DNA of 64,000 nucleotides, from assembly GCF_013167455.1 (NCBI RefSeq), contig NZ_CP038328.1, one strand, 5' to 3'. This document shows, one piece after another, positions 38,953 to 39,528 of the stretch. Position 1 is the stretch's first letter, and every line of letters begins with the position of its first letter. Below the pieces are notes generated by a model. The model was not told the DNA's origin. It saw only the letters and a program-made list of their open reading frames with translations, and ran no database searches. The position numbers and the translations under genes are program-made. This DNA comes from Escherichia coli O157:H7 (GTDB lineage: Bacteria > Pseudomonadota > Gammaproteobacteria > Enterobacterales > Enterobacteriaceae).

Positions 38953-39528
38953 ATGGAATACTTTGATATGCGTAAAATGTCGGTGAATTTGTGGCGAAAC
39001 GCTGCCGGTGAAACGCGCGAAATTTGCACTTTCCCACCGGCAAAACGTGATTTTTACTGGCGTGCCAGCATTGCATCCATCGCGGCGAATGGGGAGTTTT
39101 CTTTGTTTCCTGGTATGGAAAGGATAGTGACGTTGCTGGAAGGCGGCGAGATGTTCCTTGAAAGCGCAGACCACTTTAACCATACCTTAAAACCGTTACA
39201 GCCTTTTGCCTTTGCGGCGGACCAGGTGGTAAAAGCGAAACTGACGGCAGGGCAGATGTCGATGGATTTCAATATTATGACGCGCCTGGATGTCTGTAAG
39301 GCGAAAGTCAGAATTGCCGAACGTACGTTTACTACCTTTGGCTCACGCGGCGGGGTGGTGTTTGTGATTAACGGGGCGTGGCAACTGGGCGACAAACTGC
39401 TCACTACCGACCAGGGCGCGTGCTGGTTCGATGGCAGGCACACCCTGCGGCTTTTACAACCGCAAGGTAAACTGTTGTTCAGTGAAATCAACTGGCTCGC
39501 TGGTCATTCGCCGGATCAAGTTCAGTAA
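38953..39528 (+). CDS. ves: HutD-family protein Ves
   Basis: 191 codons from [21 protein letters not shown] ribosome-binding site. Confidence 0.85.

Follow-up and report, generated by a model that had tools for sequence, protein, structure and literature searches.

Two genes on opposite strands, ves and cho, share their last 41 bp in Escherichia coli, and the question that this junction raises is whether the overlap couples the expression of its two genes or arose passively where two coding sequences meet tail to tail. We addressed this question in a stretch of 64,000 nucleotides from E. coli O157:H7 (contig NZ_CP038328.1; here, the window), in which the surrounding gene order is astE-spy-ves-cho-nadE-osmE. 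The overlap at 39488 to 39528 that an earlier note on this DNA had described was confirmed at those positions by the open reading frames (ORFs) and by RefSeq. The coding sequence of ves (38953 to 39528, + strand) encodes a 191-aa protein of the HutD family, and that of cho (39488 to 40375, - strand) begins with GTG and encodes the 295-aa excinuclease Cho. The 41 bp common to both ORFs include both stop codons and encode Ves residues 179 to 191 plus stop and Cho residues 283 to 295 plus stop. The phase is 123:132, in which codon positions 1, 2, and 3 of ves face positions 1, 3, and 2 of cho.

The identical 41-bp overlap is found in RefSeq for strain 504237, K-12 MG1655 (cho, 1823515 to 1824402, +; ves, 1824362 to 1824937, -), and O157 PV15-279, and the stretch from 38800 to 40500 is present in 5,424 of 5,426 complete E. 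coli genomes at 95 to 100% identity. The overlap is thus nothing new: it is already annotated in every E. coli annotation, and its class is well described. Long overlaps are in general sometimes mispredictions (PMC2478687), which would favor a miscalled stop codon or gene. However, the ves/cho overlap is short, at only 41 bp, and the first in-frame stop fixes each 3' end whatever start codon is chosen. Both proteins also match curated equivalog models full length (Ves, residues 1 to 191 of 191 in NF008488; Cho, residues 1 to 287 of 295 in NF007833; both NCBIfam). Both partners are real, conserved protein-coding genes with orthologues in 58 to 80 species. The ORFs, the equivalog matches, and the comparative junctions described below already refute an annotation artefact, to which we assign a negligible chance.

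Elsewhere in the window, features at 44143 to 44436 and 58699 to 60597 comprise the type III effector gene espL1, which marks the lineage as EHEC/EPEC-like, and an intact chbA; in O157 PV15-279, chbA carries an IS1203 insertion. Exact collinearity of the window with O157 PV15-279 was considered and proved not to hold, as IS1203 is absent and an indel between 22600 and 39488 leaves an 18-bp offset.

[quoted passage not shown] As an empirical null, we followed the antisense ORF entering the 3' end of 58 annotated genes of the region in the same phase. The run before a stop had a median of 41 nt (interquartile range, 26 to 79), and 57% of the runs were at least 41 nt long. About 10 convergent junctions were found in the window, with annotated gaps of 3, 8, 40, 46, 52, 92, and 116 bp and overlaps of 41 bp, 35 bp, and, with a doubtful hypothetical gene, 4 bp. 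Because these gaps and overlaps are mostly small, tight tail-to-tail junctions are routine here. Convergent overlapping coding sequences of prokaryotes are said to have been treated in earlier work by Fukuda and by Rogozin.

In E. coli, 58 convergent coding overlaps have been counted, the commonest phase among those of at least 5 nt is 123:132 (49%), and a stop-codon-mutation model reproduces convergent overlaps (Lillo & Krakauer 2007, PMC2174442). The ves/cho pair, one of these approximately 58, resembles prokaryotic tail-to-tail overlaps in its opposite strands, its joint 3' ends, and its phase, as well as in a length that corresponds to a random run to the next antisense stop and in stop positions that move among orthologues. 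Its 41 bp exceed the very common 4-bp class yet fall far short of the class of long overlaps (>60 bp). We see no essential difference between ves/cho and known stop-codon-mutation overlaps, and we classify it as a convergent overlapping coding-sequence pair of stop-codon-shift origin.

The movement of the stop codons was documented in a comparative set of one genome per species with Cho, which returned 80 enterobacterial loci. In 58 of the 80 species, ves adjoins cho tail to tail; in 3 loci, it lies 1.8 kb away; and in 19 species, it was not found within the cho flank. Taxa without ves near cho include Salmonella, Klebsiella, Raoultella, Pluralibacter, Trabulsiella, and C. sedlakii. Among the 58 tail-to-tail species, the junction spans from a 48-bp gap to a 45-bp overlap. 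Overlaps measure 45 bp (2 genomes), 41 bp (15 genomes), 32 bp (5 genomes), 23 bp (16 genomes), 15 bp (3 genomes), 10 bp (1 genome), 7 bp (6 genomes), and 4 bp (5 genomes), and nonoverlapping junctions have gaps of 3, 28, 46, 46, and 48 bp in one genome each. All 15 genomes with the 41-bp state belong to Escherichia and Citrobacter.

These states can be traced to individual codons. The conserved core of Cho stops near residue 286, and the tail beyond it consists of 0 to 9 variable residues. In most genera of the Enterobacteriaceae, Ves has 185 aa and ends in ...LLFSEIxWLPGH, followed by the stop; in Escherichia and Citrobacter, the stop after ...WLPGH has been lost, and six codons (SPDQVQ, then stop) have been gained, for a total of 191 aa. 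By nucleotide alignment, a ves Leu codon CTA places an antisense TAG in the cho frame, giving the 15-bp overlap, and ves Gly-His written as GGT-CAC places an antisense TGA, giving the 7-bp overlap. A ves Ile codon ATY followed by a codon starting with A yields an antisense TRA and an overlap of 23 bp or, with the longer Ves, 41 bp; where Val or Phe follows this Ile, Cho continues to a TGA in Phe-Ser TTC-AGC, and the overlap is 32 bp. The alignment thus makes it plain that a Cho stop comes and goes with neutral choices of codon in ves, and the Cho tail is whatever sequence lies antisense to the 3' end of ves. In our reading, cho and ves abut with no spacer, and each frame therefore continues into its partner until a chance stop codon. 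The 41-bp state is stable, with both stops unmoved in 15 of 15 species-level genomes of Escherichia and Citrobacter, and this stability could reflect selection and not just an absence of change.

Some junctions departed from this pattern. In four loci (L045, at ~3870 to 3910 of the locus, and L051, L055, and L066, each at ~3876 to 3925), the 28- to 48-bp spacer between cho and ves is a near-perfect G+C-rich palindrome lacking U-tracts, for example, CCCCTGAACCGGCA-ATCGCC-TGCCGGTTCAGGGG, which may be a REP-like or bidirectional pause element inserted at the junction. The two loci with a 45-bp overlap (L046 and L078, 3829 to 3873) have a divergent Ves tail ending in ...SWNPAWPLTAVSQVDDLSLAG and a stop, which suggests a frameshifted ves 3' end. 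One of these genomes is labelled Chryseobacterium sp. 18061 and is probably a mislabelled or contaminated enterobacterial sequence.

To learn which gene constrains the shared sequence, we compared diversity among 15 to 16 Escherichia and Citrobacter sequences, all in the 41-bp state, using Mann-Whitney tests that draw on few sites (12 per class) and on phylogenetically related sequences. Where cho position 3 meets ves position 2, overlap sites had a pi of 0.10, versus 0.46 at other cho third positions (p = 1e-5), and did not differ significantly from ves second positions (0.053; p = 0.16). Conversely, sites at cho position 2 and ves position 3 had a pi of 0.29, versus 0.106 at other cho second positions (p = 0.005), and again did not differ significantly from ves third positions (0.41; p = 0.12). 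The overlap therefore evolves essentially like ves coding sequence, and the Cho tail is a passenger. The last 13 residues of Cho are 62% identical, versus 79% in the 100 residues before them, and Ves shows 80% amino acid identity in its tail versus 89% in the preceding residues. The Pfam HutD match (Ves residues 8 to 175) ends at residue 175, and the Cho equivalog match ends at residue 287. Conservation in the first half of the overlap is fairly high at every codon position, and the Cho ...TEL residues may thus impose some constraint as well. A half-by-half division of dominance, with Cho ...TEL prevailing opposite the new Ves extension and Ves ...NWLAGH prevailing opposite the free Cho tail, was weakly supported and was set aside since the ves-frame pattern is present in both halves of the overlap.

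Based on the annotation, the chance expectation, the comparative junctions, and the diversity pattern, we conclude, with a probability of about 80%, that the 41-bp ves/cho overlap is a real, annotated, and passively arisen convergent coding overlap.

We then considered how transcription ends around the junction. Scanning both strands from 39150 to 40040 revealed no intrinsic terminator after either stop codon and no sigma-70-like promoter at the junction, and an Rfam search of 37000 to 42000 returned nothing there. Local folds at the junction were not exceptional (z = -1.2 and -1.4). An 11-bp hairpin without a U-tract folds within the ves coding sequence at 39442 to 39468 on the cho-sense (-) strand, 19 nt downstream of the cho stop, and is found mainly in Escherichia. 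In an alignment of 58 orthologues, its arms did not covary (67.7% of cells were paired, versus 67.3% in shuffles; observed value reached by 171 of 500 shuffles), and we rejected it as a conserved shared terminator on this basis.

A long hairpin that makes a good terminator lies between spy and ves. This hairpin, at 38761 to 38839, is preceded by an A-tract and followed by a T-tract, folds with a z of -3.6 and matches the terminator scan on the - strand, and was identified as a bidirectional intrinsic terminator. On the + strand, it ends spy, and a Term-seq 3' end at K-12 position 1825060 corresponds to window position 38830 (score, 4.57). Transcripts of cho that read through ves meet no earlier terminator-like site on the - strand. 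In genera that lack ves (Salmonella, Klebsiella, Raoultella, Pluralibacter, and Intestinirhabdus), the spy hairpin is found only a few bases after the cho stop, as seen in seven loci at ~3860 to 3960 (L007, L011, L018, L056, L065, L068, and L070). In these genera, one bidirectional terminator thus serves both cho and spy. Because the hairpin adjoins cho where ves is missing, ves is either an insert between cho and this common terminator or a gene cleanly deleted from that site.

On the other side of cho, the sole Rfam matches in the searched region were REP-associated families in the nadE-cho spacer. They comprise the ES036 (CssrF) sRNA family at 40483 to 40525 on the - strand (42.9 bits, against a gathering score of 37.6) and an adjoining weak naRNA4 match at 40529 to 40565 (+); a REP-like palindrome (CACGCCGGATGCGGCGTGAACGCC) is also present in the spacer. 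Immediately upstream of where cho starts, a CTG-N10-CAG palindrome (CTGGATAGATAACCAG; 40391 to 40406, - strand) resembles a LexA box, which would be in keeping with a place for cho in the SOS regulon. Regulation of cho by the SOS response has reportedly been described by Moolenaar and coworkers in 2002 and by Fernandez de Henestrosa and coworkers in 2000. Genomic SELEX placed RpoD promoters in both the spy-ves and the nadE-cho spacers, and an RpoF holoenzyme SELEX peak falls inside ves at ~39177 of the window (Shimada et al. 2017). A GCCGATAA motif at 38892 to 38899 (+), approximately 55 nt upstream of the ves start, resembles a sigma-28 -10 element; it lies ~280 bp from the RpoF peak, and any link between the two is uncertain.

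The earlier note had also held that transcription of each gene necessarily enters the other antisense, a claim that logic, double-stranded RNA (dsRNA), and strand-specific RNA-seq all support. A full-length mRNA must hold its stop codon and therefore covers at least 41 nt antisense of the partner; a transcript that ended short of the overlap, one of the refuting observations that had been proposed, could not be a functional mRNA. The junction accommodates no terminator, and both mRNAs must therefore extend into the partner gene. The strand-specific RNA-seq check that the note had called for was available in published data, which contain antisense RNA on both sides of the junction.

These data come from a study in which the p19 protein was used to capture RNase III-cut dsRNAs of 21 to 22 bp (Huang et al. 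2020, PMC7373196). Three such dsRNAs flank the overlap (Table S3 of that study): one of 21 bp in cho at 39695 to 39717, 167 to 189 nt past the ves stop; one of 21 bp in ves at 39366 to 39388, 100 to 122 nt past the cho stop; and one of 22 bp in ves at 39078 to 39101, 387 to 410 nt past the cho stop. The dsRNA in cho was recovered in both exponential and stationary phases with 164 to 652 reads per strand. Overall, ves/cho dsRNA is sparse (1 to 11 RPM), below the authors' cluster threshold of 2,000 reads per 200 bp (top 5%), and dsRNA of this kind is present at most genes, according to the authors (PMC7373196).

Sense and antisense RNA levels in the same study, all single values without statistics, are clearly asymmetric. 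For cho, they are 7.9 and 19.2 RPM in the wild type, 6.4 and 22.0 in rnc-14, and 5.7 and 34.6 in rnc-38; for ves, they are 156.7 and 4.7, 173.0 and 1.8, and 244.7 and 8.6, respectively; and nadE, spy, osmE, and astE each have ~2 RPM of antisense RNA in the wild type (PMC7373196). We considered the excess of antisense RNA over cho as proof of long read-through and tempered this reading, given that ves, at ~272 RPM/kb, would contribute ~11 of the 19 RPM from the 41-nt overlap alone. The dsRNA 167 to 189 nt into cho is firmer evidence that some ves transcripts run on. The density of antisense RNA over ves (~8 RPM/kb) is close to that of sense RNA over cho (~9 RPM/kb), as would be expected if cho transcripts ran the full length of ves as far as the spy hairpin. 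Internal antisense promoters could also be a source of antisense RNA at the junction.

Mapped 3' ends add to this picture. Among the Term-seq entries that name cho or ves, from LB cultures at an OD of 0.4 and 2.0, none places a 3' end at the junction on either strand, although low expression may hide such ends (PMC7815308). One 3' end lies 24 nt into cho (~40351; K-12 position 1823539; - strand), and a Rho termination region has its maximum at cho +269 (~40106; K-12 position 1823784) with a Rho score of 3.87 (p = 2.5e-7) (Adams et al. 2021, PMC7815308). Together, these features suggest that, in addition to being repressed by LexA, cho is terminated prematurely by Rho when it is not induced. 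For the strand that is sense to ves, the study lists no Rho termination region within cho (PMC7815308). Past each stop, the RNA is rich in C and poor in G, with a C/G ratio past the ves stop of 1.2 to 1.8 at 40 to 360 nt, from which it is reasonable to infer that ves transcripts may end in a Rho-dependent manner. Neither gene is named in the SMRT-Cappable-seq supplements, and both are weakly to moderately expressed.

These data point to the following course of events, part of which is observed. The gene ves is the more strongly expressed of the two, and some of its transcripts appear to run at least ~190 nt into cho; the few cho transcripts probably pass all of ves and reach the bidirectional spy terminator. 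Sense and antisense RNAs pair at a low level and are cut by RNase III. In uninduced cells, much of the transcription on the cho strand appears to be stopped already by Rho inside cho, before ves. If there is a regulatory effect at all, we expect it to be a weak by-product that acts from ves on cho.

The second overlap in the window offers a point of comparison. The earlier note had mentioned a 35-bp convergent overlap between ynjH (21755 to 22027, +) and nudG (21993 to 22400, -), and the ORFs and the annotation agree that the two genes share 21993 to 22027, in the same phase as ves/cho. The DUF1496 domain of YnjH reaches residue 89 of 90, and the NUDIX domain of NudG stops at residue 125 of 135. 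As in ves/cho, then, the tail of one partner extends beyond its domain. The RNA asymmetry is also the same, with the weaker gene covered by RNA of its stronger partner: sense and antisense levels are 9.0 and 45.4 RPM (wild type), 3.8 and 29.2 (rnc-14), and 5.6 and 17.0 (rnc-38) for nudG and 80.0 and 2.7, 79.0 and 0.9, and 27.4 and 2.5, respectively, for ynjH (PMC7373196).

Could the junction nevertheless be a functional element? One possibility is a collision-type overlapping bidirectional terminator, in which the hairpin at 39442 to 39468 would pause polymerases arriving from both directions. Terminators of this kind were reportedly described by Ju and coworkers in 2019. The stable 11-bp hairpin 19 nt past the cho stop in Escherichia would fit, as known examples lack U-tracts and are placed between convergent genes, and ves/cho resembles them (bioRxiv 10.1101/2022.10.23.513370; ynaJ-uspE model) in its convergent orientation, its lack of a classical intrinsic terminator, and the presence, in Escherichia, of a hairpin near the junction. 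However, the known examples have an intergenic spacer and sharp 3' ends on both strands, and ves/cho lacks a spacer and mapped 3' ends. Its hairpin, which is not conserved and does not covary, lies inside ves, 57 to 86 nt upstream of the ves stop, where stopping would truncate the ves mRNA. Expression is low, which would make collision termination inefficient; no Term-seq 3' end marks the junction on either strand; and the dsRNA sites lie well beyond the hairpin on both sides. We regard such a terminator as very improbable.

A broader proposal is that the overlap is a selected excludon or transcriptional-interference device, in which stress- or cold-induced ves transcription lowers cho and SOS-induced cho lowers ves, through polymerase collision, through cutting of the annealed 3' ends by RNase III, or through both. 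In its favor, transcription crosses the junction on both strands and yields dsRNA, antisense RNA exceeds sense RNA over cho in unstressed cells, the tail-to-tail adjacency is widespread in the Enterobacteriaceae, each gene has its own facing promoter in the SELEX maps, and both overlapping pairs are asymmetric, with RNA of the stronger partner over the weaker gene. There are also precedents in arfA-mscL of E. coli (PMC10070815), in interference between 3'-3' overlapping genes (PMC10349824), and in collision-driven termination. On the other hand, the overlap varies in length (-48 to +45 bp) and gives way to a palindromic spacer in some lineages, and ves has been repeatedly lost (19 of 80 species), with cho there using the spy terminator. 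Sense RNA of cho was not raised in rnc-14 or rnc-38 (7.9 RPM in the wild type versus 6.4 and 5.7; single values), the dsRNA level is under the top-5% cluster threshold, and collision termination is inefficient for weakly expressed pairs. Furthermore, few interference events were detected in E. coli at 3'-3' overlapping transcripts (PMC10349824), and transcripts can overlap at their 3' ends without any coding overlap, as is common at spaced convergent E. coli pairs. Our search found no literature specific to coupling of ydjQ/ydjR or ves/cho. We know of no functional antagonism between Ves and Cho, and overall we consider a selected device unlikely.

Comparison with known systems leads to a similar assessment. 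In arfA-mscL (PMC10070815), as in ves-cho, the genes form a convergent enterobacterial pair, the transcript of one gene is complementary to the 3' end of its partner's coding sequence, and the adjacency is enriched in the Enterobacteriaceae. However, in arfA-mscL, a 3' untranslated region pairs with a coding sequence, and deletion of one gene was shown by experiment to shift the partner mRNA more than twofold, whereas ves-cho pairs two coding sequences. Excludons of Listeria and other bacteria (PMC7154746; ExcludonFinder, PMC12288877) share with ves-cho the overlapping opposite-strand transcripts of neighboring genes and the RNase III-cut dsRNA. At ves/cho, opposite-strand transcripts do overlap in vivo, based on published RNA-seq and dsRNA (PMC7373196). 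What defines an excludon, however, is mutually exclusive expression, usually of genes that oppose each other in function and often by way of a long untranslated region, and ves-cho would at most be a candidate; cho mRNA did not rise on RNase III loss (single values). Regulatory coupling of ves and cho, which the earlier note had raised as a possibility, is improbable in our view and, if real, would most plausibly act from ves onto cho.

We think it equally doubtful that ves-cho and ynjH-nudG are asymmetric excludon-like pairs in which read-through from the stronger partner (ves or ynjH) keeps Cho and NudG low; the means would be head-on collision combined with antisense pairing. We take Cho to be an SOS nuclease and NudG to be a nucleotide-cleansing enzyme. 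If such pairs exist, the cell's ability to repair DNA or to sanitize nucleotides would shift under envelope or cold stress, and enterobacteria without ves, such as Salmonella and Klebsiella, would express cho differently. If coupling at ves/cho were proved, E. coli would have a further example of 3'-3' antisense regulation, one that links stress responses to the SOS nuclease Cho.

The overlap itself carries little weight as a discovery, given that it was known and that the mechanistic hypothesis attached to it is generic. Its value lies instead in being a clean worked example of how convergent overlaps arise and persist: ves keeps its coding constraint, cho bears a dispensable tail whose length is set by synonymous codons of ves, and the obligatory antisense transcription that follows from this arrangement is visible in published data.
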